The notes beneath the pieces were generated by a model. It saw only the letters and a list, made by a program, of their open reading frames with translations, was not told the DNA's origin and did not search any database. The position numbers and the translations under genes were made by a program. From Gammaproteobacteria bacterium (GTDB taxonomy: Bacteria > Pseudomonadota > Gammaproteobacteria > UBA4575), in the NCBI GenBank assembly GCA_965243395.1, contig CBDEUS010000001.1:864001-928000 (forward strand): 64,000 nucleotides of DNA, in the 5' to 3' direction. Positions 8,252 to 38,026 of the stretch are shown in pieces; the first letter of the stretch is position 1; every line of letters begins with the position of its first letter.

Positions 8252-8279
8252 ATGATTGTTTACGATTCAAAGCGGATAT
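8252..8279 (+). repeat. 28-bp palindromic cassette site
   Basis: ATGATTGTTTA CGATTC AAAGCGGATAT. Confidence 0.7.
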
Positions 8280-8329
8280 CTAAGTGAAGCATGAGTTGCA
8301 ACAAAAGTATTCGGACTATAGGCAGATCA

Positions 8330-8779
8330 TCATGATGATGATTTTTCAGCGAAGTCTTTAAACTGATTCATAAATGCTTGAATTTTCTTTTCTAGCAATT
8401 CAGGCATGAAAATTGTAATAAGTTTGAGCAAAGCGTTAGAACTTGTGATTTCTAAGTTCAGCATCCATATAGTTTTGTCTTCATTACGTTCGTAAAATTT
8501 ATTTTCGACTGAATAGGAAATTGCATCTGTTACATAGGTTGCGCAAAACTTGTTGGGATGATTGTGTATCGTTATAGTTTTTATGATCTCTATATTGCGC
8601 CAGAAAACTTTATGAGTAAGCTTCGATTTAGCCCCGAAGGCAAATCTATCTCCACTACTCATTTGCTTGAAACCAACAAGACTGGGTTGCCACTTAGAGA
8701 GATTCTCAGGATTGAGAAATAACTCAACTACGTGTTCACGTGGTTGATTTATTTTGATTTCATATTGGTTACGCATCAC
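8330..8779 (-). CDS. SRPBCC (START/polyketide cyclase) family protein
   Basis: IKINQPREHVVELF...PENLSKWQP pattern and a C-terminal helix ending FKDFAE. Confidence 0.7.
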   Translation of the reverse strand: MMRNQYEIKINQPREHVVELFLNPENLSKWQPSLVGFKQMSSGDRFAFGAKSKLTHKVFWRNIEIIKTITIHNHPNKFCATYVTDAISYSVENKFYERNEDKTIWMLNLEITSSNALLKLITIFMPELLEKKIQAFMNQFKDFAEKSSS

Positions 8780-8895
8780 GTAGCAAACTAAAGAAAGTAC
8801 TAGACAATAATATACTAGTGCAAATGAGTGTTATAACTTATAAAAGCAGGCACTTTTAAACAGACAATAAGGTTGATGTGTCCTCGAACGAACAA

Positions 8896-9130
8896 AATCC
8901 ATAGGCGTTTGTTGAAAATTGATGCTGAAAAATACTGTGTAAAAGACATCCCCAAAATACCTTCAAAATTGTTTGTTTAAATGATTAGTGGAGGCGGCGT
9001 CAACCGGGTAAATGTTCTATCTATCTGAATTAGTTGAAAATAACTATAAGCTATCTTGATTTATACTCCCCAAATATACCCCCATTATTATTGGATTTAA
9101 ATAGACTTTATAGGACGTTATAGGTTTATT
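8896..9130. mobile_element. Island junction: duplicated tmRNA 3' end (att core 8988-8999) with arm-like flanks
   Basis: GTGGAGGCGGCG matches the tmRNA 3' end. The left flank is homologous to 41340-41432. The right flank (TACTCCCCAAATATACCCCCA) is homologous to 23400-23530. Confidence 0.8.
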
Positions 9131-9158
9131 CTGTTTGCTTACGTCCCAAAACCGATAT
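9131..9158 (+). repeat. 28-bp cassette site (degenerate)
   Basis: CTGTTTGCTTA CGTCCC AAAACCGATAT. Confidence 0.55.
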
Positions 9159-9204
9159 TATTCTTTAGTATAAGAAAATCGCCTGGAAAAGGTGGTATAG
9201 CATT

Positions 9205-9549
9205 ATGAGATTTGAAATAAATAACAAATCTATTGAAACGAATGAACAAGGATTTTTAATTAATCTCGACGACTGGAATGAAGAGGTGGCTTCTCATCTA
9301 GCAGAACAAGATGGGATAAAGCTTTATGTAGATCATTGGGAACTAATTTTATATTTTCGTGAATATTATAAAGATAATTTAGTAAATCCTACAATGCATC
9401 AAATGGTGCTTACACTTGGAAAGCAAAAAGACAAACATTTTCATGACTTAAAAGAGTATGAAAAACACATCTACCAACTTTTTCCAACTGACCCCATCCA
9501 TGAAATATGTAAACTTGCTGGTCTTCCCATGCCACAACCAGATACTTAG
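9205..9549 (+). CDS. TusE/DsrC-family protein lacking the terminal cysteine (RspA-like)
   Basis: NEQGFLINLDDWNEEVA, HWELILYFREYY, ICKLAGLP; ends PQPDT. Confidence 0.8.
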   Translation: MRFEINNKSIETNEQGFLINLDDWNEEVASHLAEQDGIKLYVDHWELILYFREYYKDNLVNPTMHQMVLTLGKQKDKHFHDLKEYEKHIYQLFPTDPIHEICKLAGLPMPQPDT

Positions 9550-9555
9550 AAACAA

Positions 9556-9583
9556 TAGCCCTGAATCAACCTAAAGCAGACAT
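9556..9583 (+). repeat. 28-bp cassette site (degenerate left arm)
   Basis: TAGCCCTGAAT CAACCT AAAGCAGACAT. Confidence 0.55.
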
Positions 9584-9600
9584 GCATTAATATCTCAGTA

Positions 9601-10542
9601 ATGCCAAAGTATCGTAAAAATTTACCTCAGCTTTCAGGTGATCTGTATTTAACAGATGGTGGTATCGAAACTACTATGATCTTTCATGAGGGTTTCGAAT
9701 TACCTTATTTTGCAGCTTTTCCACTACTTGATAACACCAAGGGTCAAGAAGCCTTGCAAAGGTATTTTCATAATCACTGTAGTATTGCTGCAAATTATAA
9801 AGTTGGTTTTATTCTAGAGGCGATTACTTGGCGTGCGAGTTTAGATTGGGCAAAAAAACTAGGTTATTCCAAAGAAGGTTTAGATGAGATGCTGCACAAA
9901 GCAGTCGAGTTTTTAGCTCCTTTTAGATCGGAATATGAAACCGAAGATACCAAAATGGTTTTGAGTAGCTGTATTGGCCCACGTGGTGATGGCTATGTTC
10001 CAGAAGATCAAATGTCTATTAACGAAGCAGAAGATTATCATTCCTTACAAATTGAAACATTAAGCAAAACTGATGCTGATATGGTAACTGTACTAACGCT
10101 TAATTATGTTGAAGAAGCCATCGGAATTGCACGTGCAGCAATAGCACATCAAATTCCATCTGTAATATCATTTACTGTTGAAACTGATGGTAATCTTCCT
10201 ACAGGCCAAACATTGAAAGAGGCAATTGAAACCGTAGATACAGAAACTGACCAAGCGCCTCTTTATTATAAAATAAACTGTGCTCACCCCACGCATTTTG
10301 AGAAAGTAGTTTCAACTGGTGAGTCGTGGCTTCAAAAGATTCGCAGTGTTCGTGCAAATGCATCAAAGTGTAGTCATGCTGAACTTGATGAAGCAGATGA
10401 ATTAGATGAAGGTAATGCAAAAGAACTAGGCGCTCAATATCGTGAACTTAGAAATAAACTGCCAAATTTAAATGTGTTAGGGGGATGCTGTGGAACTGAC
10501 AGTCGACATATTGATGCAATTTGTAAAGCCTGTGTTTCGTAG
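9601..10542 (+). CDS. Homocysteine S-methyltransferase family protein
   Basis: LTDGGIET, IGPRGDGY, INCAHP and the GGCCGT Zn motif. Confidence 0.88.
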   Translation: MPKYRKNLPQLSGDLYLTDGGIETTMIFHEGFELPYFAAFPLLDNTKGQEALQRYFHNHCSIAANYKVGFILEAITWRASLDWAKKLGYSKEGLDEMLHKAVEFLAPFRSEYETEDTKMVLSSCIGPRGDGYVPEDQMSINEAEDYHSLQIETLSKTDADMVTVLTLNYVEEAIGIARAAIAHQIPSVISFTVETDGNLPTGQTLKEAIETVDTETDQAPLYYKINCAHPTHFEKVVSTGESWLQKIRSVRANASKCSHAELDEADELDEGNAKELGAQYRELRNKLPNLNVLGGCCGTDSRHIDAICKACVS

Positions 10543-10555
10543 AAAAAATAATTAA

Positions 10556-10583
10556 ATGACCGCTACAGAACAAAAGCGATCAT
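10556..10583 (+). repeat. 28-bp cassette site
   Basis: ATGACCGCTAC AGAACA AAAGCGATCAT. Confidence 0.75.
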
Positions 10584-10638
10584 ATTTATGAAATTAATAA
10601 TTCTTAATATTGGAATAGTTAATAAAGGATAGCAAGAT

Positions 10639-11073
10639 ATGCAAAAGTTTCCTCATCATTACCATGCACAAGCACTTGGAGGACCTACTGGTTCACTTGA
10701 TACACAATCAAATGGATTAACGAAGCTCGATATTGCTGCGCCAAAGGAATTTGATGGGCCAGGAGATAAATGGTCGCCAGAGGACCTTTTGGTAGCAAGC
10801 GTAGCTAGTTGCTTGATACTTACTTTCCGCGCCATAGCAACTGCCTCAAAATTAGAGTGGTCTGAGTTATCTTGTGAGGTTGAAGGAGTATTAGAGATGG
10901 TAGATCGCAAAACTCAGTTCACTGAAATCTACATTAACGCCTCATTGGTTATTAAATCACAAGAAGATGAAGAGAAGGCCGCGCAAATTATTGAGAAGGC
11001 AGAAAAAAATTGTCTAATCACAAACTCACTTACATCAGCTAAACATTTAAATGCTAATGTAATTATTGCTTAA
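10639..11073 (+). CDS. OsmC/Ohr family peroxiredoxin-like protein
   Basis: APKEFDGPG, WSPEDLL..SVASC, AEKNCLITNSL. Confidence 0.88.
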   Translation: MQKFPHHYHAQALGGPTGSLDTQSNGLTKLDIAAPKEFDGPGDKWSPEDLLVASVASCLILTFRAIATASKLEWSELSCEVEGVLEMVDRKTQFTEIYINASLVIKSQEDEEKAAQIIEKAEKNCLITNSLTSAKHLNANVIIA

Positions 11074-11101
11074 TTGTCAGCTATATACCCAAAGCGGGCA
11101 T
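11074..11101 (+). repeat. 28-bp cassette site
   Basis: TTGTCAGCTAT ATACCC AAAGCGGGCAT. Confidence 0.75.
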
Positions 11102-11115
11102 TCAAAGGTTATTAA

Positions 11116-11493
11116 ATGAAAGAAATAATAGACTTCAAACCATTTGTACCTTCAAACGACTACGAAGTATCAAAATCTTTTTATGAACATATAGGATTTA
11201 AGATCAACTGGGACGATGGGGAAGTATGTGAAGTCGACACAGAATTTGGATACCGTTTTTTGTTGCTACCTAAAAATCACAATAACTATGCCCATAGTTT
11301 AATGCTCCATTTTATGGTTAATTCTGCACAAGAATGGTACGAGCACTTTTGCTCAATACAGTTAACTGAAAACTTTAAAGGCACTAAAGTCTCAGTGCCT
11401 AAATTAATGCCTTGGGGCTTAATCGTTACTCATGTCTGGGATCCAGCAGGTGTATTGCTCCATTTTGCTGAACGACCAGAACCTAAAGAGTAG
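11116..11493 (+). CDS. VOC/glyoxalase family protein
   Basis: PFVPSNDYEVSKSFYEHIGF, PWG, DPAGVLLHF. Confidence 0.8.
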   Translation: MKEIIDFKPFVPSNDYEVSKSFYEHIGFKINWDDGEVCEVDTEFGYRFLLLPKNHNNYAHSLMLHFMVNSAQEWYEHFCSIQLTENFKGTKVSVPKLMPWGLIVTHVWDPAGVLLHFAERPEPKE

Positions 11494-11517
11494 CCGCTAA
11501 CGACTCAAAGCAGACTA
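11490..11517 (+). repeat. 28-bp cassette site overlapping the upstream stop codon
   Basis: GTAGCCGCTAA CGACTC AAAGCAGACTA. Confidence 0.75.
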
Positions 11518-11615
11518 TTGGGTCGATAATCTATCGAAAGTTATCCTCTGATATTTCAAAATATTTAAGCTGAAACAAAATTCAAGGCTTAATTCCAAAT
11601 CGGTATTCTATATCT

Positions 11616-12212
11616 ATGAATAAACTATTTAGAATCCTCCATGCACTTACTGCATTAACTGCTGTAATTGCTTGTGTTGTACTAATATTTGCTAAAGGAG
11701 GACATCCGCCAGGAATAGTGTTTGTCCCATTTGTATTAGTTTATTGGGTTATTACGCATGTTATTTTACTAGTACTAAAATGGTTTTTGGCATACATGGC
11801 TAAATCAGAAGAAGATTCAAATTCTCAAGGATGGCCGCCACTGCTTACGCTCATTGCAATTATTAGTGGATTATTTTTAGCTTTTGCAATGTATGGAGTG
11901 TTTCATGATTATGTACTGCGTTCATACAAAATAGAAATTCAAGATATAGTATGGGCAGCTATGTTTTTTATTGCACCGGCATTATTGTTAGGTGGATTAG
12001 TGTTTGGTGCAGCTACAGGTTCAAAATATGCTAGATGGATCGCAGCTGGAGGGCCAGTTGCATATCTAGTTTACAGTATTATGCATATTATAAATGGAAC
12101 TGCGAAACCTTCTTTTTTTAATATTATTATTGTGTTTGGACTTTGTATTGCGCTAAGTTCATATTTAATTTTTTCCTCTAGAGTAAAGAATTTTATTTCA
12201 TCACGGAAGTAG
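11616..12212 (+). CDS. Hypothetical multi-pass membrane protein
   Basis: 198 aa with about six hydrophobic segments. Confidence 0.65.
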   Translation: MNKLFRILHALTALTAVIACVVLIFAKGGHPPGIVFVPFVLVYWVITHVILLVLKWFLAYMAKSEEDSNSQGWPPLLTLIAIISGLFLAFAMYGVFHDYVLRSYKIEIQDIVWAAMFFIAPALLLGGLVFGAATGSKYARWIAAGGPVAYLVYSIMHIINGTAKPSFFNIIIVFGLCIALSSYLIFSSRVKNFISSRK

Positions 12213-12262
12213 GTTTTTTCTGCATGTTGGCTGTTATCTATAAGCTATCAAAAAATTTTGTC

Positions 12263-12290
12263 ACGACTGCTAATGTTCCAAAACGGACAT
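12263..12290 (+). repeat. 28-bp cassette site
   Basis: ACGACTGCTAA TGTTCC AAAACGGACAT. Confidence 0.75.
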
Positions 12291-12307
12291 TTTGATACTT
12301 TTCTAAG

Positions 12308-12694
12308 ATGTTCAAGAATATATTTTCAGCGTTTCTAAACTCATTTTCAGAGTCACAAAAGCTTGAAAAACGTTACCAACAATTAGTAACGCGTATTGGT
12401 TGGATTACAGTAGCAATAAGTTGTCTAGCTTTAATTGGGGTGATGTATATATCAAGGTTGATGTTTGGGCTGCCTGTTGAAGGTGGAAGTCTAGAGGGCT
12501 TACGTTTAAATCTTATATCATGGGTTATTTTTTTAATTATAGTTATCCCCATAATATTTTACGTTGGAATGGTTTTGGTATACGGAGCATTTGGAATTGT
12601 TATGTTTTTGCTAGGTAAAATTTCGTGGTCACAAGTCATTGATTGTGCTTGTTACGGTAAATATCCCAATAAATGGTATAAGACATATACCTAA
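12308..12694 (+). CDS. Hypothetical membrane protein
   Basis: 128 aa with 2-3 TM segments. Confidence 0.65.
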   Translation: MFKNIFSAFLNSFSESQKLEKRYQQLVTRIGWITVAISCLALIGVMYISRLMFGLPVEGGSLEGLRLNLISWVIFLIIVIPIIFYVGMVLVYGAFGIVMFLLGKISWSQVIDCACYGKYPNKWYKTYT

Positions 12695-12703
12695 CAAATT
12701 AAT

Positions 12704-12731
12704 ATGACCTCTAACGACACAAAGCGGAAAT
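12704..12731 (+). repeat. 28-bp cassette site
   Basis: ATGACCTCTAA CGACAC AAAGCGGAAAT. Confidence 0.8.
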
Positions 12732-12748
12732 AAGAGGCGGAGATGTAA

Positions 12749-13012
12749 ATGGATAAATACGAGAAGCTTTCACCAGATGTATTAAATGCCATTCATTCCA
12801 ATAGGAAAATCGAAGCAATAAAGCTATTAAGGGAAAGTAACAATCTTGGCCTTAAAGAGGCTAAACAAGTTGTTGATAAGTACATGCGTGAAAACCCAGA
12901 TTTAATTGTAGAAAGTGGAAATGCAAAAGGTCTTGGTATTAATGGCCTAATTCTAATTATTGCTGCAATTGTTTTATTATATTTTCTTAATTCTAGGTAC
13001 AATTTTTTTTGA
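12749..13012 (+). CDS. Ribosomal L7/L12 C-terminal-like domain protein with a C-terminal TM anchor
   Basis: KIEAIKLLRE..NLGLKEAKQVVD motif followed by a hydrophobic tail. Confidence 0.75.
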   Translation: MDKYEKLSPDVLNAIHSNRKIEAIKLLRESNNLGLKEAKQVVDKYMRENPDLIVESGNAKGLGINGLILIIAAIVLLYFLNSRYNFF

Positions 13013-13038
13013 TGGTCAATATACTCAAGAGTAATTAA

Positions 13039-13066
13039 TTGACTTCTAACGAATCAAAGCCGGCAA
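13039..13066 (+). repeat. 28-bp cassette site
   Basis: TTGACTTCTAA CGAATC AAAGCCGGCAA. Confidence 0.7.
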
Positions 13067-13082
13067 TTGAAAATCAGCAAAA

Positions 13083-13343
13083 ATGAAAGTTAAAGCTTCC
13101 GTTACACAAAAATTGAAATTTACAAAATCAATAGAAATTTCTTCATGCCCCGATGAGGAATTTAAAGATACAAAATGCCTCAAAATAGGAGATGAGTACT
13201 TTTTACCGAGCATCGAATGGACAAAGTTTATACCTGCAAGTCTATCTGATGATGGTTATGCCTATTTTGAGGAAGTGACAGGAGAAGAATGGGAAGCAAT
13301 CCACCATGCAATTAAAGAAGAAAAGACTAAAGTTACAAAATAG
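13083..13343 (+). CDS. Hypothetical protein
   Basis: 86-aa ORF between two 28-bp sites. Confidence 0.6.
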   Translation: MKVKASVTQKLKFTKSIEISSCPDEEFKDTKCLKIGDEYFLPSIEWTKFIPASLSDDGYAYFEEVTGEEWEAIHHAIKEEKTKVTK

Positions 13344-13366
13344 GTGTGATGCATAAAATATTTTTT

Positions 13367-13394
13367 ATGTCTGTTTACAATCCAATGCGGGCAT
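13367..13394 (+). repeat. 28-bp cassette site
   Basis: ATGTCTGTTTA CAATCC AATGCGGGCAT. Confidence 0.7.
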
Positions 13395-13398
13395 AGCT

Positions 13399-13701
13399 AT
13401 GAGTTTGAGCAAGCGAGTTAAATTTATATATGGTCTTCTAATACCTATAGCTATATTGATCATCGGCATGCTGATAATTGCAAATGTAGATTCTGGCGCA
13501 AGCGCTGCTGAGTTTGCAGGACTAGCAGTATTCTTCATGTTGCTTATTTCATTACCGATAACAATAGTGCTCAATACAGTTCTGATGTTTAAAAATTTTC
13601 ATACTCCTATAGCCTGTTTGGGTAGAGGAATGATAATCCCAGTGCTAATTTTAATCTCAGCAATTGTTTATCAATCTGGACTATGGGATAAATTAACTTG
13701 A
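13399..13701 (+). CDS. Hypothetical membrane protein (about 3 TM)
   Basis: 100-aa hydrophobic ORF between two sites. Confidence 0.65.
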   Translation: MSLSKRVKFIYGLLIPIAILIIGMLIIANVDSGASAAEFAGLAVFFMLLISLPITIVLNTVLMFKNFHTPIACLGRGMIIPVLILISAIVYQSGLWDKLT

Positions 13702-13723
13702 GATGCGGAATGAATTTAGCAAT

Positions 13724-13751
13724 ATGACTGCTAACGACCCAAAGCGGACGT
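13724..13751 (+). repeat. 28-bp cassette site
   Basis: ATGACTGCTAA CGACCC AAAGCGGACGT. Confidence 0.85.
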
Positions 13752-13814
13752 ACAGGTGTGCTTCAAAGTTGTATAATTAGTCGAATAAATATCAACAAAC
13801 TGGGAGGGTTTAAT

Positions 13815-14300
13815 ATGCTGGCATACTATAGATTCTGCGTTGTAATATTTATATTTCTATTATTTTCTAATATTTCTTTAGCCGAAAAAAAAGCAAACTT
13901 TAAAGATGACACAATAGCCAAAGAGATACTTTTTGATAAAAGCTGGAACTGTTCATTTGGTGATAATTCTGGATGGAGTGGTTATGGAATCTGGAAATTT
14001 GAAACTATTAGTAAGAAAAAAGTAACTGGAAGCTTAGATATTGAAGCTTGCTACGGCGATAGTTTAGTTGAAGGTAAATATTCGGGGGGCACAGCGAGTG
14101 GAACATTTAATGGGAAACTGAAGAAAGACACAATGAAATTTACTGCAAACCCACCGCCAGGTGGTGTTTGTAGAACTTTCAATGGCAAGCTTAAATTTTT
14201 TCTAATTGATGGAAGTGATGAATATACTGCGGAAGGGAAATTCAGTAGAACACATAACGGTGTTCCGTATCGTGGAACTCTATACTGTTCTGTCCAGTAA
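13815..14300 (+). CDS. Hypothetical secreted beta-rich protein
   Basis: GGAGG RBS before ATG 13815 (the ORF track starts at 13758); signal peptide; four Cys in the mature part. Confidence 0.65.
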   Translation: MLAYYRFCVVIFIFLLFSNISLAEKKANFKDDTIAKEILFDKSWNCSFGDNSGWSGYGIWKFETISKKKVTGSLDIEACYGDSLVEGKYSGGTASGTFNGKLKKDTMKFTANPPPGGVCRTFNGKLKFFLIDGSDEYTAEGKFSRTHNGVPYRGTLYCSVQ

Positions 14301-14329
14301 AAATCATTTAATAAATTTTAACCAACCAA

Positions 14330-14357
14330 ATAACCGCTATTGGCCGAAAACAGACAT
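14330..14357 (+). repeat. 28-bp cassette site (TGGCCG spacer)
   Basis: ATAACCGCTAT TGGCCG AAAACAGACAT. Confidence 0.8.
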
Positions 14358-14370
14358 TTCCTAAAGTAGT

Positions 14371-14407
14371 AGAATAGGGTGACTCACCCCATTACAAAAC
14401 CCGCGTC
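14371..14407 (+). repeat. ~55-bp repeat B, truncated copy
   Basis: AGAATAGGGTGACTCACCCCATTACAAAACCCGCGTC. Confidence 0.75.
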
Positions 14408-14596
14408 TTTTTCTAGAGATGCATCTTTAACTAATTTTAAACTCGCAACGTCTGTTATTAGCAAATGGCGTAAATATTAAACCTAAATTATTAATAAAAC
14501 TGATTAATATAATTAAGCGGTTATATTTATTATTACAATTGATGTTCTTCATATAATATTAGATTCAATGTAAGCACTTATTTGAGGATGTATGCC

Positions 14597-15292
14597 ATGT
14601 CCACTACAGTTCCTGATTTACCAGAGCAATGGAAAGATTTAGATTTTGTCAAAATTTTAGCTCAACCAGCTGCGTTTATATCTATAAGCCAGTGCAATAG
14701 CCTTTATAAACCCGAAGGAGCACAGGGAAATGAGAAACAATGGGAACGTGGCACTTTAGAAAACACCATTAAAGTAGCCAACGCCTGTCGTGAAGCAAAC
14801 ATGAAATTCTTTTGGATTGGCTACGATGTGTTTCGTGAAGACTATCCCATGACTGAACTTGATCGAGCACAGTATGGTACTTGGAGCGAAGTGTTCGATA
14901 CAAAGAACAGAACAGAAGAATATAAGAAATGGGATGGTGAATTAGCAGATGAGCTCAAAGCGATTTCACAACCTGAAGATGAAGAGTTTTTTGAATATGC
15001 TCACCAGAGTTCTTTTGTAGGCACACCATTAAAATTAATGCTTGAACGAGCAGGCATTAAAACATTGGTGTTTTGTGGAATTCACTTAGATTGGTGTATT
15101 GAAGGAAATTCACGTGCAGCAAGAGATGAAGGGTACATGCCCATCGTGATTGGTGATGCATGTTCGTGCCAAGATCCTGCGGATGATGTCCCAACTATGA
15201 ATCGGCTTAACAGAATAGTTTGCCCTGTGCTTTCAGCAGATCAAGCGGTAAGTTACATCTTGCAAGGACAAGCAAAAATAAAAGCCGCCTAA
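14597..15292 (+). CDS. Isochorismatase-like cysteine hydrolase family protein
   Basis: SSFVGTPL..ML...GIKTLVFCGIHLDWCIEG..RAARDEGY..IVIGDAC; GAGGA RBS before ATG 14597. Confidence 0.8.
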   Translation: MSTTVPDLPEQWKDLDFVKILAQPAAFISISQCNSLYKPEGAQGNEKQWERGTLENTIKVANACREANMKFFWIGYDVFREDYPMTELDRAQYGTWSEVFDTKNRTEEYKKWDGELADELKAISQPEDEEFFEYAHQSSFVGTPLKLMLERAGIKTLVFCGIHLDWCIEGNSRAARDEGYMPIVIGDACSCQDPADDVPTMNRLNRIVCPVLSADQAVSYILQGQAKIKAA

Positions 15293-15402
15293 AATCTATA
15301 AATTACTACGTAGTAAAACTTTTGCTTTTAGTTGAAAGCAGAAGTATTGGTAGTGCCAACCTTAACTCTGTAACCAGGCGCATGCTACCAAACTATATTA
15401 AA

Positions 15403-15430
15403 ATGTCTGCTTACGATCAATATAGAATAT
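15403..15430 (+). repeat. 28-bp cassette site (degenerate right arm)
   Basis: ATGTCTGCTTA CGATCA ATATAGAATAT. Confidence 0.5.
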
Positions 15431-15475
15431 AAATTTATATAGACTGAGTAAAAATTAATAAAAGAGAGTATTGCA

Positions 15476-30868: not shown

Positions 30869-30970
30869 TAATAAAAGTAACTGCTTTGTAACCAACAGTT
30901 TTTTGGATATAAAGAGGTTACACTAACCATATTATCAGTAGTAGATTATTACAGATCCATAAGCTTTATT

Positions 30971-31648: not shown

Positions 31649-33029
31649 TTCTCCAACTACATTTTCAACAAAACTAACGCTTTGGTATGGCATTACTTTC
31701 TTTTTGTTTCTTCTAATATCGTTTTGCATTCTTTATTTCTCTGTTGACGCAGTATTAGAGTCAGAAATTAAAGAGGATTTAATCGAAGACATTGCTGAAT
31801 TTAGAAGCCTATATAACGAAGACGGTTTAGATGAAATAAAGCGTGAAATTAGAAATGAAAGTGCTACAGAGGATAGCAATGATGAGTTTATAAGATTGCT
31901 TAGCCTGGATGGTGAAGAACTAATTTCAACGAATTTAGAGAACTGGAAAGGGCTTTATGCATTTGATACAAAATTGAAACGAGCAGCAGAAATACATCCA
32001 GAGCCTATAGTTGAAACTATAAAACTCGCGAATCATGACTATCATTCAAAAGTAGCCTATGCGCTTATTGCAGATAAATATATTTTGCAAATAGGTGAAT
32101 CTACAGAAAATAAGAGCGATTTAATGGAAATAATTGCTCTCTCATTAGCGCCTTTGCTGTTTATAGCAATCCCATTTGCCTCATTGATATGTTGGAAAAT
32201 AGCAAAACATACTACTAAAGATATTGAGCAAGTCAGTAAAACTGCTTCTCTTTTAGAATCTGGTGATTTTTCCCAAAGGGTCAAAATAGGTACAAACGTT
32301 CGTGAAGTAGCATCACTTGGTATTAGTTTCAATAACATGGCTGAACGTGTCCAAACATTAATAACTGAAATGCGAGAGATGATTGATAATATCGCGCATG
32401 ATCTACGAAGCCCTATAGGTCGAATACGAGCAATTTCAGAAGATTCTATTTCTAATAATAATAATCTAGAGGAATATAAAGTCGCGTCTGCTCAAACATT
32501 AGAAGAATGTGATCGTTTAATAACGATGATTAATACTACATTAGATGTAGCAGAAGCTGAGTCTGGTGTCAGTAATGAGCACCATGAAAAAGTAAATATC
32601 TCAAATATAGTTGAAGAAGTTTGCGATTTGTTTGAACCGTTAGCCGAAAGTAAAAACATTAGACTAATTGCAACTGTTCAGCCTAATAAAATCATTTCTG
32701 GAAATAAACAAAACTTACAAAGAATGATTTCAAATATGATTGATAATGCAATTAAATATACTGGAAAAAATGGAGAAATTATTGTTGATGTTATTAATAA
32801 TGAAAAAGAAATCAAAATTTTTATAAAAGACACTGGTATAGGTATTCCAGGTGATGAAGTAGATCGAATATTTGATAGGTTTTATAGATGTGATTCTAGC
32901 AGATCAAATGAGGGATGTGGGTTAGGATTGAGTTTTGCGCGTGCTGTTGCACGCTCTCATAATGGCGATATACAAATAGAAAGTGAAGTAAATAAAGGAA
33001 GTATCTTCACAATCATGCTTCCATACTAA
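31641..33029 (+). CDS. HAMP-domain sensor histidine kinase
   Basis: Two TM segments, AHDLRSP H-box, NAIKY, DTGIG, GCGLGL; ATG 31641 overlaps the regulator's 3' end. Confidence 0.92.
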   Translation: MLNSPTTFSTKLTLWYGITFFLFLLISFCILYFSVDAVLESEIKEDLIEDIAEFRSLYNEDGLDEIKREIRNESATEDSNDEFIRLLSLDGEELISTNLENWKGLYAFDTKLKRAAEIHPEPIVETIKLANHDYHSKVAYALIADKYILQIGESTENKSDLMEIIALSLAPLLFIAIPFASLICWKIAKHTTKDIEQVSKTASLLESGDFSQRVKIGTNVREVASLGISFNNMAERVQTLITEMREMIDNIAHDLRSPIGRIRAISEDSISNNNNLEEYKVASAQTLEECDRLITMINTTLDVAEAESGVSNEHHEKVNISNIVEEVCDLFEPLAESKNIRLIATVQPNKIISGNKQNLQRMISNMIDNAIKYTGKNGEIIVDVINNEKEIKIFIKDTGIGIPGDEVDRIFDRFYRCDSSRSNEGCGLGLSFARAVARSHNGDIQIESEVNKGSIFTIMLPY

Positions 33030-33126
33030 TTATTCTGTGAATTATTACCAAATGGTGAAATTATCGTAACAAACAAATGGGGATTGATAATACATAATAC
33101 ATGCACATTCATATTTATAGTATTGC

Positions 33127-33528
33127 ATGTATGCCAAAAGTTTAAACACAATTGAAAAACATGTATTGCATCATTTCATCAATCAAAATCAAAATAAGTT
33201 TAAAAACTTAACTGAACAGATTGTACATGCTTCAATTGTAAATAGAAAAAAGTCGAATACTGGGTTTAAAACAGAGTTTTTGATACCAAAATATATACCA
33301 AAAATAAACACTCTGAGCATAAATACAGTTTTATACTTATATGGTGCACATCAAGAACTTGATTCTTTTGTAAACTTTATGCTCTGGTTTACATTTGGTC
33401 GGCTTAATTATTTAGAGGGTATTTCCAGTATAGGCACATGGCCTAGTAATGAACTAGATATCATCATTTTTCCATCATACGAAGTTAGTTCGCTACATTC
33501 ACAGGCAACTGATTATCTCATCAAATGA
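33127..33528 (+). CDS. Hypothetical protein
   Basis: 133-aa ORF. Confidence 0.5.
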   Translation: MYAKSLNTIEKHVLHHFINQNQNKFKNLTEQIVHASIVNRKKSNTGFKTEFLIPKYIPKINTLSINTVLYLYGAHQELDSFVNFMLWFTFGRLNYLEGISSIGTWPSNELDIIIFPSYEVSSLHSQATDYLIK

Positions 33529-33606
33529 TCATTTTTCAGTAAGCTTGTCATTAGATTAGCTAAGTAGATTTACACATGTATTAAATATTAATCACGGGAG
33601 TTAATC

Positions 33607-34620
33607 ATGAGTTTATCTAAAGTCAAATTTTTTATAACTATTATTTGTTTAACATTTCTTATTACACCCATAACGAGCATAGCAAGTAATAATCAAGATA
33701 GAGCGTGTACAAAATCTGCAAAATTTCTTAAATCTGCATGTGGTTTTGAGGTCAGAGATGATTATCTAAGCACGGTAGCAATCTGTCTTAATGAATCGGA
33801 CAAAGACAGTCGAAAAGAATGTATGCGTGATGCAAGATCCAATCAAAGAGAAGCTAACATGGAATGCAGAGAAGTATTTAGAGCTAGAAAGAGAGTGTGT
33901 AATGATATCGGTGAAGAGCCCTATGATCCCCCATTTAGTGAAGAATTTTCGCAAGAATTTGTTGATCCACGGGAAATTGGAAAATCTGTAAGTCCGAATC
34001 CTTATTTACCTTTAATTGCTGGAAATCAATGGGTATATCAATCCACTACAATTAATGAAGAAGGAGAAGAAGAAATTGAAAACAATGTTGTCACCGTAAC
34101 AGATAAAACTAAATTAATTGATGGCATCAGGTGTCTTACAGTTACAGATGTGGAGATGGATGGTGAGGACATTATTGAAAGCACGGATGATTGGTACGCA
34201 CAAGATATTTATGGAAATGTTTGGTATTGCGGAGAAATTTCGGAGAACTTTGAGTTATTTGAAGGAGACGACCCAGAAATTCCAGAACTTGTCGATATCG
34301 ATGGATCATGGAAATCAGGTAGAGAAGGAGCGAAAGCAGGTATTCTTTTACCTAGCGTTCCACAAATTGGCGAAACTATACGTCAAGAAGTTGCCTGGGG
34401 TGACGCCGAAGACATTATTGAAATTTTAGCGACTGATGCATCTGAATCAGCACCTGGTGGTTCTTGCACCAATAGTTGCTTACAAACATTCGACTATACA
34501 CCGCTTGATCCCGAGGCACTTGAGCATAAATTTTATGTGCCGGGGTTGGGACTTATAGTAGAAGTTGATTTAACTAATGGTGATCGCAATGAACTAATCG
34601 AATTTAGAAGCTCGCTTTAA
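33607..34620 (+). CDS. Secreted acidic Cys-rich hypothetical protein
   Basis: Signal peptide, Cys-rich helical N-domain, NPYLPL..G..W.Y and DWYAQD..GNVWYCGE motifs. Confidence 0.7.
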   Translation: MSLSKVKFFITIICLTFLITPITSIASNNQDRACTKSAKFLKSACGFEVRDDYLSTVAICLNESDKDSRKECMRDARSNQREANMECREVFRARKRVCNDIGEEPYDPPFSEEFSQEFVDPREIGKSVSPNPYLPLIAGNQWVYQSTTINEEGEEEIENNVVTVTDKTKLIDGIRCLTVTDVEMDGEDIIESTDDWYAQDIYGNVWYCGEISENFELFEGDDPEIPELVDIDGSWKSGREGAKAGILLPSVPQIGETIRQEVAWGDAEDIIEILATDASESAPGGSCTNSCLQTFDYTPLDPEALEHKFYVPGLGLIVEVDLTNGDRNELIEFRSSL

Positions 34621-34637
34621 TATAAAACTTTTAGTGA

Positions 34638-34669
34638 AAAGGCAGCAAATTTTACAATTTGCTGCCTTT
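34638..34669 (+). terminator. Intrinsic terminator
   Basis: AAAGGCAGCAAATT-TTAC-AATTTGCTGCCTTT. Confidence 0.75.
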
Positions 34670-34691
34670 AATATGTATATTTGCAATCAGC

Positions 34692-34746
34692 AGAATAGAG
34701 TAGTTCACACCACTACAAAACCCGCGATCTAAGACTTAATTCGAGT
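34692..34746 (+). repeat. ~55-bp repeat B (diverged)
   Basis: AGAATAGAGTAGTTCACACCACTACAAAACCCGCGATCTAAGACTTAATTCGAGT. Confidence 0.75.
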
Positions 34747-34856
34747 GATAGCCCCTCAAACAAATTGAAAAGCTAAGCATCTGTAATTGAAAGAGAATAA
34801 ATTCAAGTCTCTTCTAGATACCCCCAGAAGTACCCCAATTTGGCTTTTGATTAGTA

Positions 34857-34885
34857 ATGTCTGCTTTCGACTAAAAAGAAGTTAT
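34857..34885 (-). repeat. Cassette site, apparently inverted
   Basis: The minus strand reads ATAACTTCTTTT TAGTCG AAAGCAGACAT. Confidence 0.6.
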
Positions 34886-34898
34886 AAAAGTTATTTGT

Positions 34899-35576
34899 TT
34901 AATTGCTGAATCGTATAATTTCTTTATTTGAAAACAACCAAACACGTCCTATCCAGTAAACTACCATGGCAAGAATTAAGAAAACTGGAATACCAATAAT
35001 ATAGATAAGTTGTTCTCCAGGCATATCTTTAATATTAGCGCCTTGCATTTTTATAATTTTGTCAATGAGCGCCAGTACAGCCCATACCAAAGAAAAACCC
35101 ATTCGCCACACATGCCTAATGATGCGATGTGGACCTGATAATCCTGATTTATAAATATTATGCATGTCGCCTATCGCACATAAAATTGCGAAGACAGCCC
35201 AATAATAATAGTTGTTCTCAACGCCTACATCAGTTGTACTATTTGTTATAAATATTGAACCAACTGCTAAAACTATTATCCATACCAATGCCATATACTC
35301 TAGAACGTTAATTTCATTTTTTTTATGGTGAGCTGTAAGCCATGCAGTAAATATTGTGTAAATAACTAACAAGCTTAGCAACATATCATCAATTGATTCT
35401 TTTAATGTTGCTGCTATAAAACCAGACACCAACATAATTAGCATTGAAGCTGTAAAACAACTACCAGCTTTTTTATGTAGATCCCCGCCTTTATTCGCTA
35501 ACAAGGTAACAACAGCAGCAACTAATCCAATCGATCCTGCCGGTGTATGTACCGCCCACACAATTATCTCTTTCAC
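34899..35576 (-). CDS. DUF2306-like membrane protein
   Basis: VHTPAGSIGL, KGGDLHKKAG, RIIRHVWRM. Confidence 0.65.
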   Translation of the reverse strand: MKEIIVWAVHTPAGSIGLVAAVVTLLANKGGDLHKKAGSCFTASMLIMLVSGFIAATLKESIDDMLLSLLVIYTIFTAWLTAHHKKNEINVLEYMALVWIIVLAVGSIFITNSTTDVGVENNYYYWAVFAILCAIGDMHNIYKSGLSGPHRIIRHVWRMGFSLVWAVLALIDKIIKMQGANIKDMPGEQLIYIIGIPVFLILAMVVYWIGRVWLFSNKEIIRFSN

Positions 35577-35600
35577 GACGTAAGTCTCAAATAATTAAAG

Positions 35601-35927
35601 CTATAAATTGTTATTTAGTTTCTTACTTGCAAGATAACCATATTGAGAATCTTGATGCTGTCCCACTAAATATTCGTAAAGCGTATTTGCAATATCATGA
35701 TTTCCTAAACCTTCATGGGCTTGTGCTTTTAAGTAAGTTACCTCTGCTTTCATTTCTGGCGTTGAATCATTTATGTTTTCAGCTCGTGTAATTAGCTCTA
35801 ATGTACTTTCATAATCTTGTGCCTCAAATTTTTTGTACGCTTCTGTGATAGAGGCACTTTGAATCATGCTGCTACATCCTGCTACGACCAGCATTAAGAC
35901 CAAAAATAATAATTTCTTAATCATCAT
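35601..35927 (-). CDS. TPR-like lipoprotein
   Basis: Lipobox VAGC and a TPR-like YLKAQAHEGLG segment. Confidence 0.7.
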   Translation of the reverse strand: MMIKKLLFLVLMLVVAGCSSMIQSASITEAYKKFEAQDYESTLELITRAENINDSTPEMKAEVTYLKAQAHEGLGNHDIANTLYEYLVGQHQDSQYGYLASKKLNNNL

Positions 35928-36030
35928 TTAAACCTTAGATTTAATTTGAAGTAATCAACGGCGCGAGATACTATCAATACATAAATCGATATAATAGAGA
36001 GAAATATCTATATCAGGTATACATATTTGC

Positions 36031-36921
36031 ATGGATTGGAAATCAATAAAATTCGACTGGAATCGGGCTAGAGCATTTCTTGTCACAGCAGAAGAAGGCT
36101 CACTCGCTGCTGCCGCACGTGCTCTTAATATGACTCAACCTACATTAGGCCGTCAGGTAGCTGCATTAGAAGATGAGCTTGGTGTTGAACTTTTCAATCG
36201 CAGTGGTAGAGGCTTGGAACTTACACCTAATGGAATGATGTTAGTTGATCATGTGCGCGCAATGGGCGAAGCTGCTAACCTTGTTTCTTTAACTGCTTCC
36301 GGCAGATCTCAAGCAGTTGAAGGACTAGTATGTATTTCCGCAAGTGATGCTTTTTCAACTTACCATCTACCAGGAATGATCAGTCGATTGAAAGAAAAAG
36401 CGCCTGGTATTCAAATTGAAATTGTTGCATCAAACGAGTTGAGCGACTTACGTCGTCGCGAAGCAGACATTGCTATTAGACACGTGCGACCAGAACAACC
36501 TGACCTTATAACCAAACTAGTCCGAGAACCCCTAGCAAACTTATATGCAGCAAGTTCATACTTTGAGAATCATGACCGCCCAATGTCTATTGATGATTTA
36601 TCGAATGCTGATTTTATTGGATTTGAGAATGTTGACCGATCTGTTGCAATCTATAATGAAATCGGTCTACCCATAACTAAAAATAACATAAAGTACAATT
36701 CAGGCTCTGTGGTAGTGGGTTGGGAATTAGTTAAACATGGACTTGGTATCATAATAATGAGTGAAGAAATAGCTTTAAACACACCCAATATTGAACAAGT
36801 ATTAGAAAACTTTGAGTCAATACAATTTCCTGTTTGGTTGACAACGCACCGTGAATTACACACTAATCGTTGTATTCGAATTGTATATGACCATCTCGCT
36901 ACAGAGCTTAGTAGCCAATAA
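36031..36921 (+). CDS. LysR-family transcriptional regulator
   Basis: HTH region AEEGSLAAAARALNMTQPTLGRQVAALE; DLRRREADIAIR. Confidence 0.93.
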   Translation: MDWKSIKFDWNRARAFLVTAEEGSLAAAARALNMTQPTLGRQVAALEDELGVELFNRSGRGLELTPNGMMLVDHVRAMGEAANLVSLTASGRSQAVEGLVCISASDAFSTYHLPGMISRLKEKAPGIQIEIVASNELSDLRRREADIAIRHVRPEQPDLITKLVREPLANLYAASSYFENHDRPMSIDDLSNADFIGFENVDRSVAIYNEIGLPITKNNIKYNSGSVVVGWELVKHGLGIIIMSEEIALNTPNIEQVLENFESIQFPVWLTTHRELHTNRCIRIVYDHLATELSSQ

Positions 36922-36967
36922 ATATTTAGTGAGAAATTTGTTGGAATCACTTATACGTAACTCTAGA

Positions 36968-36995
36968 ATGACCGCTAACGACCCAAAGCAGTCAT
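36968..36995 (+). repeat. 28-bp cassette site
   Basis: ATGACCGCTAA CGACCC AAAGCAGTCAT. Confidence 0.88.
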
Positions 36996-37020
36996 ATTTA
37001 AAATAATCTAGGGGATTGTA

Positions 37021-37992
37021 ATGTATCAATTAAGAAGTGGTTTAACATTTCTTGAAATGTGTCAAAAGGCATTGTTATTTTTTGCGCTAGGTTTGTTTGT
37101 TGGAGCAATGGCTCAGCTTATAATGCCAAAAATATTAAGCCCCACTCTTGTAAGAGATATATTAGATATTCCTGTCTACCCAAGACCTAACTCATTTATT
37201 TTCTTATTAGAGCTTACACCAATGTTTTTGGCGGGCTCAGTATTTGGCTGGATACTATCCATAGCATCAAAACCTCACTACATAATCAATACAGCATTTG
37301 CGACTCTCGGATCATTACTGTTTGTATTTTTCATGTCATTTAATATGAGCCGGTTATTTGGATTTAATGAATTTTATTTTGAGCATCCATGGATATGGTC
37401 ATATCTAGCAGGTTTTACTTTTACATTGTTATTATTTAGTGCTGTATCAAACGCTGAAACCATCAAAACAAAAGGTGTTGCAACTTTATGCGTATTACTT
37501 GCATGCATATCCATTTACTTAATTGCAAGCTATGTTTACTTGTCAAGAGACTATAAGAGACCTATAGATGCCTATGCATCTGTGGAGGGAATCAGATTAC
37601 TACCAAGGTTCATACCAAAAGCTTATTTGATGTTAACAAATTATAAAAACCGCTATATAGAAGGCAACAAAGAGTCACTGCATAGATTTCTTTTCACACT
37701 TTATGCTTCTAAGAGATATAGCAAGTCAAGACTGATAGAACTTTCGGCTGGATACTTGAAAAATGGCGCTGATATTAATGAGGTTAACCATCATGGAACT
37801 ATATTGCATGGGGCTGTCAGTTCAAGAGATGTAAAACTTATAGAACATGCACTAAGTTTTGGCGCAGATAAAGAAATCAAAACACATATATATAAAAATT
37901 ATAGGTGCACTGATATGACAAGTCTGGAATTAGCCAAATGCTTGCATGCTCTCGGTCGGCATGATTACACAAATATTATTTCGCTGCTTTAA
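37021..37992 (+). CDS. Membrane protein with a C-terminal ankyrin-like repeat
   Basis: About five TM segments, then LKNGADINEVNHHGTILHGAV...FGAD. Confidence 0.65.
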   Translation: MYQLRSGLTFLEMCQKALLFFALGLFVGAMAQLIMPKILSPTLVRDILDIPVYPRPNSFIFLLELTPMFLAGSVFGWILSIASKPHYIINTAFATLGSLLFVFFMSFNMSRLFGFNEFYFEHPWIWSYLAGFTFTLLLFSAVSNAETIKTKGVATLCVLLACISIYLIASYVYLSRDYKRPIDAYASVEGIRLLPRFIPKAYLMLTNYKNRYIEGNKESLHRFLFTLYASKRYSKSRLIELSAGYLKNGADINEVNHHGTILHGAVSSRDVKLIEHALSFGADKEIKTHIYKNYRCTDMTSLELAKCLHALGRHDYTNIISLL

Positions 37993-37998
37993 ACCAAA

Positions 37999-38026
37999 AT
38001 GACCGCTAATGGCCGAAAGCGGACAT
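37999..38026 (+). repeat. 28-bp cassette site (TGGCCG spacer)
   Basis: ATGACCGCTAA TGGCCG AAAGCGGACAT. Confidence 0.9.

Follow-up and report, generated by a model that had tools for sequence, protein, structure and literature searches.

The window, the whole stretch of DNA that was analyzed (64,000 nucleotides, C1:864001-928000 of the gammaproteobacterial genome G000; 2.58 Mb, 38% GC, two contigs, marker-gene completeness 100%), carries between positions 8252 and 38026 an array of mostly short genes separated by copies of a 28-bp palindromic site. The best reading of this array, which is judged probable by a modest measure, is that it is one of several integron-like mobile gene-cassette arrays with a new site and a recombinase outside the known families tested. 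This reading draws on what was directly observed: the site and where it is placed, how the arrays are built, conservation across genomes and phyla, the turnover of cassettes, and breakpoints that fall inside sites. Coordinates are those of the window unless a contig prefix is given; genomes are coded by G and a number, loci by L and a number, and metagenome runs by X and a number.

The conserved unit consists of ATGWCYGCT, an asymmetric 10-bp center, and AGCRGACAT, so that 9-bp inverted arms enclose the center and the symmetry is better described as 9-10-9 than as the 11-6-11 geometry given in an earlier note on this DNA. Centers fall into two classes of about half the sites each, AACGACCCAA-like (A type) and ATTGGCCGAA-like (B type). 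Position 4 of the left arm is A or T and its mirror position in the right arm is fixed, which gives the site a polarity beyond that of its center. The full consensus of the earlier note matches the window with up to three mismatches 14 times, at 12 distinct places, against 0.01 expected, and the arms alone (ATGWCYGCT-N10-AGCRGACAT, up to three mismatches) give 30 matches where 0.23 are expected. These fall at 16 distinct places, 15 of them within 8252-38026; the remaining one, an isolated three-mismatch match at 50353-50380 in the core region, is probably a chance occurrence. A weight matrix refined on 105 genome-wide sites yields 21 sites of at least 12 bits within 8252-38026 against 0.1 per shuffled window, with window-site scores that are partly circular because the matrix includes the window sites.

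The 22 copies that the earlier note had called clear are largely upheld by this matrix, 16 of them scoring at least 20 bits and those at 13039, 15991, and 19654 scoring 12-20 bits; the copies at 17465 and 22434 are weaker (10-12 bits), and that at 24524 fits only with a 1-nt insertion. Among its seven degenerate copies, 9131 and 15403 reach at least 12 bits and 9556 scores 9.8 bits, and the other four find no support (16993, 3.2 bits; 18762, -15; 21518, 6.5; 26565, -9). Supported sites lie on the + strand, as the note had remarked in saying that nearly all point the same way, except 15403 and 25090, which are near-symmetric and score slightly higher on the - strand. The absence of the motif from the core region likewise held up, there being no site of at least 12 bits past 38026 in the window.

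Features are listed as coordinates, strand (a dot marks entries without an assigned strand), and description, with weight-matrix scores or other evidence in parentheses; ORF denotes an open reading frame, MBL metallo-beta-lactamase, and tmRNA transfer-messenger RNA.
8252-8279, +, 28-bp site with A-type center, first of the array (23.7 bits; 3 mismatches to the arms pattern)
8280-9130,., unit with an ORF (8330-8779, - strand, 149 aa, no Pfam match) and a partial tmRNA 3' end (8897-8999) (ORF and repeat comparison)
9131-9158, +, weak 28-bp site (12.7 bits)
9159-9555, +, cassette with a DsrC-like protein (9205-9549) (Pfam PF04358)
9556-9583, +, degenerate site in which the right arm alone is kept (9.8 bits)
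9584-10555, +, cassette with a homocysteine S-methyltransferase (9601-10542) (Pfam PF02574)
10556-10583, +, 28-bp site (23.0 bits; consensus and arms patterns)
10584-11073, +, cassette with an OsmC-like protein (10639-11073) (Pfam PF02566)
11074-11101, +, 28-bp site with unusual left arm and center, same as the G012 site after OsmC (27.8 bits)
11102-11489, +, cassette with a glyoxalase-like protein (11116-11493) (weak Pfam matches below the curated cut-off)
11490-11517, +, 28-bp site (22.8 bits)
11518-12262, +, cassette with a membrane protein (11616-12212)
12263-12290, +, 28-bp site (27.8 bits)
12291-12703, +, cassette with a small membrane protein (12308-12694)
12704-12731, +, 28-bp site (32.3 bits)
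12732-13038, +, cassette with an 87-aa protein containing an L7/L12_C-like stretch (12749-13012)
13039-13066, +, 28-bp site (18.3 bits)
13067-13366, +, cassette with an 86-aa ORF (13083-13343)
13367-13394, +, 28-bp site (24.4 bits)
13395-13723, +, cassette with a 100-aa membrane ORF (13399-13701)
13724-13751, +, 28-bp site, A type (40.3 bits)
13752-14329, +, cassette with a 180-aa secreted protein (13758-14300)
14330-14357, +, 28-bp site, B type, followed by a ~60-nt repeat (14358-14420) (37.4 bits)
14358-15402, +, cassette with an isochorismatase-family protein (14582-15292) (Pfam PF00857)
15403-15430,., weak site of ambiguous orientation (17.5 bits on -, 12.5 bits on +)
15431-15990, +, cassette with a 131-aa membrane ORF (15476-15871)
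15991-16018, +, 28-bp site (19.1 bits)
16019-17464, +, two-gene unit of a membrane protein (16140-16766) followed by DUF454 (17047-17415), without a supported site in between
17465-17492, +, weak site (10.2 bits)
17493-19653,., unit with a nitroreductase-like gene (17525-18622, - strand) and an MBL-fold protein (18862-19653, + strand)
19654-19681, +, 28-bp site, left arm with a 1-nt deletion, orthologue of the G012 site L010:11742 (16.4 bits)
19682-22433, +, three-gene unit with patatin (19695-20948), DUF2238 (20945-21511), and an EEP nuclease/phosphatase (21722-22429)
22434-22461, +, weak B-like site (11.8 bits)
22462-23529, +, unit with cytochrome b561 (22592-23161) and the second tmRNA 3'-end copy (23172-23230)
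23530-23557, +, 28-bp site, first after the internal att copy (24.5 bits)
23558-24523, +, cassette with an HpcH/HpaI aldolase (23595-24473)
24524-24552, +, 29-bp site variant, B type, with a 1-nt insertion (read from the sequence; 0.6 bits ungapped)
24553-25089, +, cassette with a 166-aa membrane ORF (24587-25087)
25090-25190, +, doublet of a degenerate B-type site (25090-25117), a 45-nt conserved linker, and an A-type site (25163-25190) (18.7/20.1 and 43.5 bits)
25191-27632, +, five-gene unit (25350-25892, 26011-26268, 26281-26514, PepSY_TM at 26647-27204, DUF4405 at 27223-27615)
27633-27660, +, 28-bp site, B type (36.7 bits)
27661-29499, +, unit with a cation diffusion facilitator (27826-28698) and an ICMT-family methyltransferase (28757-29440)
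29500-29527, +, 28-bp site, B type, exact consensus match, followed by the ~60-nt repeat (47.1 bits)
29528-36967,., 7.4-kb block without a supported site, containing a porin-like ORF (- strand), an OmpR-type regulator, a histidine kinase, three ORFs, and a LysR regulator (36031-36921)
36968-36995, +, 28-bp site, A type (42.4 bits)
36996-37998, +, cassette with a 323-aa membrane ORF (37021-37992)
37999-38026, +, final 28-bp site of the array, B type, exact match, with the ~60-nt repeat after it (46.9 bits)
38027-41431, +, last variable unit, with a 953-aa MurJ-fusion protein (38410-41271) (Pfam PF03023)
41432-41787, -, tmRNA gene with its 3' end facing the array, right border of the variable region

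The genome of G000 contains 107 strong sites in 18 groups, 14 of which have at least two sites, and orientation is consistent within each array. All but three of the 107 are intergenic, and 92 of these 104 follow a co-oriented gene, with median gaps of ~9 nt from stop codon to site and ~35 nt from site to the next start; the earlier description of sites lying just after a stop and before the next start is thereby extended to the whole genome. In 14 cases the TGA inside ATGAC is itself the stop codon of the preceding gene, and at C1:41292-45565 nine successive gene gaps each contain a site. The Pfam content of the array bears out the statement that functionally unrelated, co-oriented genes are each followed by a site. 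Promoter-like hexamer pairs number 46, fewer than the 77.9 ± 8.3 of shuffled sequences, and the arrays look promoter-poor as far as such pairs indicate. Of the 18 groups, three directly adjoin a tRNA-Met or the tmRNA gene and another two are within 15 kb of a tRNA, so that the clustering in tRNA/tmRNA islands suggested earlier is not seen. The motif does occur genome-wide, as the earlier note had anticipated for a repeat or operator, but its clusters lie in variable DNA rather than among core genes.

Variation among sites bears on how they are recognized. Arm positions 6 and 23 form CG, TG, CA, and TA pairs in 29, 28, 26, and 9 of 99 distinct sites, similarly so in high-GC sites, and no hairpin covariation was found at stem positions of these 99 sites. 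As single-stranded DNA the 40-bit site at 13724 folds with -2.7 kcal/mol (z -0.7), the best sites reaching -9.6. The independently varying arms and the weak fold of 13724 favor a protein that binds two half-sites over a selected hairpin. Some sites are paired into doublets in which a conserved linker joins a B-type to an A-type site 73 bp (11 cases) or 83 bp (3 cases) away; the window example is at 25090-25190, and the 101-bp doublet unit recurs in G000, G001, and G004. Half-sites outside full sites occur at chance frequency, which led to rejection of a reading as uptake sequences. A scan of Rfam 15 returned only the tmRNA and a tRNA at gathering score and nothing relevant at E ≤1 in the window array or in five high-GC loci, no known structured RNA family being matched by the site, and an intrinsic-terminator scan did not call the 28-mers terminators. 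A CRISPR array was set aside, as it had been in the earlier note, on the ground that the intervals of 300-7400 bp hold genes (cas genes were not searched for).

With up to two mismatches the motif is found in 13 of 14 congeners, G014 being the sole congener without it, in five of 10 other genera of the family, and in one of 16 other families; a reversed control pattern is found in none. An exact scan of one genome per species gave at least 119 stretches, and the taxa among the 80 matches listed include Pseudolabrys and other alphaproteobacterial metagenome-assembled genomes, Betaproteobacteria, and Acidobacteriota, together with bins labeled Binatia, Flavobacteriales, Thiotrichales, and Spongiibacteraceae, some of which labels may be wrong. 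In high-GC contigs the 28-mer again forms arrays, as doublets and triplets in which tandem copies recur every 45-46 bp (97 loci; 52 spacings of 45 bp and 39 of 91 bp). An even sample of 400 Pseudomonadota species contains 19 with at least one exact copy, mostly one to four copies, and one genome with the control pattern. Single copies occur in plasmids of Klebsiella, E. coli, Pantoea, and Cronobacter, and the E. coli Qin prophage region has one upstream of relB, annotated ydfV; the B-type 28-mer stands ~90 nt upstream of the relB operator region both at L156 4007-4034 (E. coli plasmid NZ_CP069974.1) and in E. coli chromosomes. A 141-bp query containing the E. coli copy was matched in 1433 of 5426 complete genomes, with the site covered in most of the matches listed. 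The motif is also present in 53 IMG/VR contigs; two viral contigs compared with a phage collection gave no match. Judged by its letters, the site is not lineage-specific, the same 28-mer being present across phyla.

Site numbers differ among relatives, with 50 in G001 and 162 in G019, among the highest in the family sample. An IS6-family insertion sequence (240-aa transposase; L017 8094-8887) is present in ~14 copies in G019 and in none in G000. Read-through of tandem 28-mers produces recurring spurious ORFs (peptides MSA.G.KRT and ..KADM; e.g., L029, L039, and L133), which form the largest 'protein family' among the locus ORFs and are therefore probably annotated as hypothetical proteins by gene callers.

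Turnover of genes is evident where arrays occupy corresponding positions. Between the same flanking genes (82% and 90% identical) the tmRNA locus measures 14.6 kb in G012 and 36.3 kb in G000, and the only genes common to both are the OsmC and methyltransferase cassettes, which adjoin each other in G012 in swapped order; two short non-coding matches are also shared, and a separate synteny comparison with G012:C3 gave one shared gene. When 20 kb of the array was compared with 56 family genomes, the matches were gene-sized and scattered and ended near site coordinates. The entire patatin/DUF2238/EEP unit is 88% identical to G012:C3:387949-390792, and the DUF2238 gene stands alone between two sites in G005 and has a site on one or both sides in G019 and G022. 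Sites also flank homologues of the DsrC-like cassette in G001 and G019, in the latter in inverted orientation.

Beside xerD, the core gap is 41-96 bp long without a site in G001, G019, G022, and G015; it is occupied by five sites in G011, by eight in G002, and by partly shared arrays in G000 and G012, and in the motif-less G014 it measures 1.8 kb without sites. In G000 both xerD and xerC lie no more than ~3 kb from small site clusters (C1:422917-427334 and C2:247855-251971), and sites adjoin xer genes in relatives of other genera too (G019:C1:297156-302542, with sites at 297156-299041 and xerC at 301733-302542; L071; L094). This proximity may be accidental, may reflect a shared hotspot, or may hint at the enzyme. 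The whole xerD-side array of G011 is bracketed by inverted repeats of ~87 bp that are GC-rich for the genome (L147 10410-10510 and 13161-13261); one end occurs in G002 (L153 7685-7783), and the repeat is also present at L037, L011, and in motif-less G014 (L151). It may be a carrier element or a miniature inverted-repeat transposable element.

Breakpoints that fall inside sites are seen in the following comparisons, which bear out the earlier expectation that gene-content differences between strains or relatives break in or at sites. The OsmC cassette is flanked by sites in four different contexts, in G000, G012, G008, and G002, and in both the G000/G012 and the G008/G002 pair homology runs from the right arm of the upstream site to the end of the left arm and center of the downstream site, unusual arm variants traveling with the cassette. 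In G019 an 884-bp cassette is present twice, in arrays 358 kb apart, with 100% identity that begins at position 8 of an A site and stops at position 27 of the B site that comes next, so that both ends lie inside 28-mers, and a third copy, 84% identical, is likewise located between an A and a B site. In G002 at least 1.05 kb (at least two cassettes) is ~99% identical in two arrays, and the left breakpoint falls inside a 28-mer whose arms are the same and whose ten central letters are mutual reverse complements. No recent cassette duplicates were found within G000. Metagenome contigs from three runs diverge from the window at 13724 (X1 and X3, with different neighbors to the left), 13758 (X2), 15403 (X1), 9548 (X2 and X3), and 14334, and some contigs connect units that are not neighbors in the window, as does one from X2 that joins 14405 to 15403, skipping the isochorismatase unit. 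Contigs of run X14, which bears the same species label, gave no match on the window, an outcome from which no absence follows.

In the mechanism proposed for these observations, the region 8252-38026, in practice extending to the tmRNA gene at 41432, would be one of about a dozen mobile cassette arrays in G000, in which 28-bp sites of 9-10-9 layout separate cassettes of one or a few genes each. A sequence-specific protein would bind the two arms on double-stranded DNA, strands would be exchanged at the edges of the center, and recombination between direct repeats would lead to excision, insertion, reordering, and sometimes inversion of cassettes, a logic that may be likened to that of integron cassettes and Acinetobacter dif modules. 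The presumed crossover points, about between positions 9 and 10 and between 19 and 20, are compatible with the breakpoints of four comparisons and do not represent measured cleavage. We infer from the sequence comparisons that the breakpoints arise from site-specific recombination. The intermixing of A and B centers suggests that homology of the center may be unneeded, as in single-strand-exchange reactions, and the near-symmetric B center could allow antiparallel pairing, which would explain the flipped center in G002. What the earlier note had put forward, a cassette capture and shuffling system with its own site, is thus retained as regards array structure, turnover, and breakpoints and is not retained as regards likeness to dif beyond geometry and the link to islands.

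Several observations weigh against this reading. No recombinase can be named, each known family tested being absent from G000 or not co-occurring with the motif; no protein recurs beside the sites in 172 loci of distant taxa (119 genome and 53 viral loci), and the only families that recur beside the G000 arrays are XerC and XerD. The empty target gaps contain no site, which leaves the first insertion unexplained, and the right junction of the G000/G012 difference beside xerD is without a site. A 397-bp duplicate in G019, 100% identical, has no site of at least 10 bits inside and is separated from the nearest site by more than 700 bp. The site that follows one orthologous gene is of A type in G000 and of B type in G012. 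Homologues of the methyltransferase occur in 12 relatives, in 11 of which no site is found within ~500 bp, the site in G002 being ~250 bp away. The metagenome contigs are short and of low depth, at ≥90% likeness, and per-position breakpoint statistics (153 site pairs) are dominated by the doublet linker and are not used as evidence. The 28-mer is also single-copy in many genomes, as in the E. coli Qin prophage, with no evident cassette role.

The search for the enzyme covered the window, G000, and the related genomes. No tyrosine recombinase was found in the window, as previously remarked, and those of G000 are XerC, XerD, and three P4-type integrases only. The integron integrase IntI (TIGR02249) exceeds the cut-off in five of 56 family genomes, motif-less G014 among them and G000 not, and in none of 14 control genomes; no 28-mer lies within 1.5 kb of any of the five intI genes. 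The Y1 transposase (Y1_Tnp, PF01797) of repetitive extragenic palindromic (REP) elements, the REP-associated tyrosine transposase (RAYT), has no match in G000, the control being matched in six of 14 genomes. G000 likewise has no match to the serine recombinase domains Resolvase (PF00239) and HTH_7 (PF02796) or to IS110, rve, DDE_Tnp_1, and TopoIB. Transposase_31 (Rpn-type nuclease), considered as a candidate enzyme, also has no match in G000, and the P4-type integrases were rejected, two paralogous ones having a close relative in only one of the 55 further family genomes (a search that did not cover the third by itself). A phmmer search with the five recombinases of G000 against the ORFs of the 172 loci gave sporadic matches only; all-against-all clustering of these ORFs returned mostly the spurious read-through ORFs, and a search of the G000 proteome against them returned nothing recurrent. 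On the evidence of these profile searches, the enzyme is not an IntI, resolvase, RAYT, IS110-type, or DDE transposase encoded in G000. XerC and XerD are the sole candidates present wherever the motif is. The recombinase acting in trans that the earlier note assumed stays putative, each known family tested being absent from G000 or not co-occurring with the motif.

The principal competing explanation, which is considered unlikely, is that the 28-mers are REP-like extragenic palindromes, selfish or host-used repeats that are located after stops and affect translation, DNA topology, or the 3' ends of mRNA. On this view horizontally acquired DNA would be rich in them, and the rearrangements would arise incidentally from short repeats and palindromes, without any dedicated cassette system. 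The position of the sites directly after stops and co-oriented with the upstream gene, the tandem doublets and triplets with conserved linkers in G000 and high-GC genomes, the single copies in many genomes, and the failure to find a cognate recombinase all fit this explanation. So does a precedent, the CGTC-tagged REPs, which the text of Di Nocera et al. (2013; PMC3733652) describes as palindromic repeats in five phyla, mostly in Alphaproteobacteria and mostly downstream of genes, without a dedicated transposase. According to the same text these repeats have an 8-9 bp stem, a 4-5 nt loop, an unpaired tag and tail, and head-to-head dimers, an architecture unlike that of the present site with its 10-nt center, head-to-tail units, and lack of an unpaired tag. 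The strong clustering of sites in variable DNA and their absence from the core part of the window also speak against REP-like repeats, as do the stem positions, which show no covariation and where, on the transcribed strand, C.A mismatches and T.G pairs are equally common; some of the strong sites fail to fold. Nor would any structural role call for the identity of the 28 letters that is seen across phyla, and recent duplications end inside sites, one of them with a flipped center.

A second possibility narrows the cassette reading by naming an enzyme: the host XerC/XerD pair would act here as at the dif-like sites that flank modules of Acinetobacter plasmids. It is regarded as improbable. XerC and XerD are the only G000 recombinases common to every family genome, and G001, with its 50 sites, has only Xer-type matches among the matches listed. 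The site clusters within ~3 kb of xerC and xerD in G000 have counterparts at L071 and L094, in the xerD-side arrays of G011 and G002, and in the xerC-side sites of G019, and the mixture of different centers would fit single-strand exchange without center homology. Nevertheless, the motif-less genomes G014, G017, and G023 have XerC and XerD too, so that their presence does not discriminate, and the xerD-side hotspot is empty in four genomes that carry the motif elsewhere. The dif site of G000 (C1:959290) is canonical and unlike the 28-bp site, sharing five of 11 and four of 11 arm letters (manual count), and the 28-bp sites are direct repeats without alternating orientation. Sites of dif modules alternate in orientation. 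The likeness to dif that the earlier note had pointed out is accordingly confined to geometry and does not extend to sequence or to the division into 9-bp arms around a 10-bp center.

Still less probable is the explanation that the 28-mers are operators bound by a dimeric regulator or silencer of horizontally acquired genes, with no role in recombination. The palindromic arms, varying independently, the distance of ~35 nt to the next start, and the single E. coli copy upstream of the relB operator region would suit such a regulator. However, the tie to the preceding stop (median ~9 nt, sometimes overlapping) is closer than that to the next start, promoter-like hexamer pairs are not enriched in the counts given above, and no candidate regulator recurs near the sites. 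Operators would also leave the breakpoints inside sites and the flipped center unexplained.

Mobile cassette arrays, the preferred reading, can be compared with several known systems. Integrons, and clusters of attC sites lacking integron-integrases (CALINs), resemble the present arrays in having a recombination-type repeat after every one of their short, co-oriented, promoter-poor, functionally unrelated genes, ORFs that in some cases end inside it, several arrays per genome, and cassettes found again in other arrays and genomes, their boundaries falling inside the repeat. They differ in that G000 has no integron integrase and no 28-mer lies near the intI genes of relatives, in that there are no attC-type core boxes, sequence rather than fold being conserved and each unit having a self-contained 28-bp palindrome, and in that no attI or Pc platform was found. 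The earlier statement that the site is not attC agrees with the conservation of its sequence across phyla and with pairing positions that lack covariation, and on these sequence features the window array is not an integron in the strict sense. The dif modules of Acinetobacter plasmids, as far as the part of the literature drawn on here describes them, share with the present system 28-bp inverted-arm sites flanking small accessory modules that shuffle between replicons and the lack of an element-encoded recombinase; the system of G000 differs from them in arms unlike the host dif, direct repeats, chromosomal and much longer arrays, and cross-phylum distribution.

REPs and bacterial interspersed mosaic elements (BIMEs), together with the CGTC repeats as set out in the text cited above, are similar in being short extragenic palindromes just downstream of genes, with clustered forms that have linkers. 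The difference lies in the lack of RAYT in G000 and of a GTAG or CGTC tag, in the 10-nt center, and in the head-to-tail units. Unlike REPs and BIMEs, the 28-mers are confined to variable arrays rather than dispersed in core operons and lack stem covariation. Compared with the CGTC repeats as the text of PMC3733652 describes them, the outer letters of the 28-mer are part of the palindrome, a comparison made without the consensus figures of that paper and compatible with an overlap with a variant loop. Br-REP1 and Br-REP2 of Bradyrhizobium, as given in the text of PMC5082802, are other sequences, their flanking-palindrome alignment having been outside the comparison.

Serine-resolvase res sites with multiple subsites presumably offer a further parallel, with two or three dimer-type palindromes within ~100-120 bp, and differ in that G000 lacks the Resolvase and HTH_7 domains and most sites are single. 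The half-site of the 28-mer may resemble a resolvase half-site; a literature search for such a consensus found nothing relevant. Genomic islands integrated at tRNA or tmRNA genes by P4-type integrases are similar in that the window array apparently lies in two tmRNA-bounded tandem islands, and differ in that neither island contains an integrase and most G000 arrays are not at tRNA genes. A literature search found no description of the site or of such arrays, the figures and supplements of PMC3733652 and PMC5082802 being outside its coverage and publication elsewhere being possible; a search by motif letters returned primers only, and nothing alike was found in the literature on integrase-less integron-like arrays and on dif modules outside Acinetobacter.

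A broader proposal, advanced tentatively and falling somewhat short of probable, is that an IntI-independent cassette capture and shuffling system extends across several phyla. It would have built arrays in Gammaproteobacteria of the sea and Alphaproteobacteria of the soil and left single 'footprint' sites next to accessory genes of plasmids and prophages, E. coli Qin among them; its enzyme would be either of a family not yet linked to recombination or XerC/XerD in a new mode. Cassette arrays built by site-specific recombination are a kind already known, and the system would be categorically new if the enzyme were of a new family. Single genes are stockpiled and reshuffled by integrons, the textbook system, and dif modules provide a second, narrower case; a third, if real, would mean that cassette-based genome plasticity is more general than thought. 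Its distinguishing feature would be a sequence-conserved site found from marine Thiotrichales-labeled bacteria to soil Alphaproteobacteria, Acidobacteriota, and enterobacterial plasmids without a known recombinase attached, which would point to a new DNA-binding or recombination enzyme and provide a 28-bp marker for flexible gene pools in genomes and metagenomes. If the 28-mers are instead REP-like, they would constitute a very widespread, transposase-less REP-like family that marks variable DNA.

The setting of the array in the genome is given by the only RNA genes of the window, the tmRNA gene (41432-41787, - strand) and a tRNA-Ala. The tmRNA 3'-end region is present in three copies (8897-8999, 23172-23230, and 41341-41448), which indicates two tandem islands integrated at ssrA, and by these boundaries the array looks to be situated within them. 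No integrase is encoded between the three copies, in either island. The DNA following the first two copies is also similar over about 130 bp (8970-9134 and 23372-23533), each of these stretches ending at a 28-mer. The island structure accounts for the location of the window array and not for the 28-mers.

Other features border the array. An SRAP (YedK-type) gene (6927-7571) stands at the left array border, ~0.7 kb upstream of the first site. The last variable unit encodes the 953-aa MurJ-fusion protein (38410-41271; membrane domain and MurJ), for which congeners have no full-length close homologue, their best match being 20-23% identical; a paralogue 61-64% identical is located at G000 C2:1232624-1235560. 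A second repeat of ~60 nt (..TAGGGTGGTTCACCCCTCTACAAAACCCGCGTCC..) follows three B-type sites (14358-14420, 29528-29595, and 38027-38093) and occurs twice without a site, at 34690-34760 and at 41270-41330, the latter just before the tmRNA 3' end.

Both contigs of G000 start and end in long tandem repeats with periods of ~387 and ~318 bp (C1:1-9348, C2:1-10404, C1:1272337-1279210, and C2:1292134-1299313). The ends of the two contigs are mutually reverse complementary, and G000 is therefore probably a single circular chromosome broken at two repetitive genes. The canonical dif-like site at C1:959290 is ~31 kb to the right of the window and the cumulative GC skew peaks at ~C1:925000, from which it follows that the window adjoins the replication terminus.

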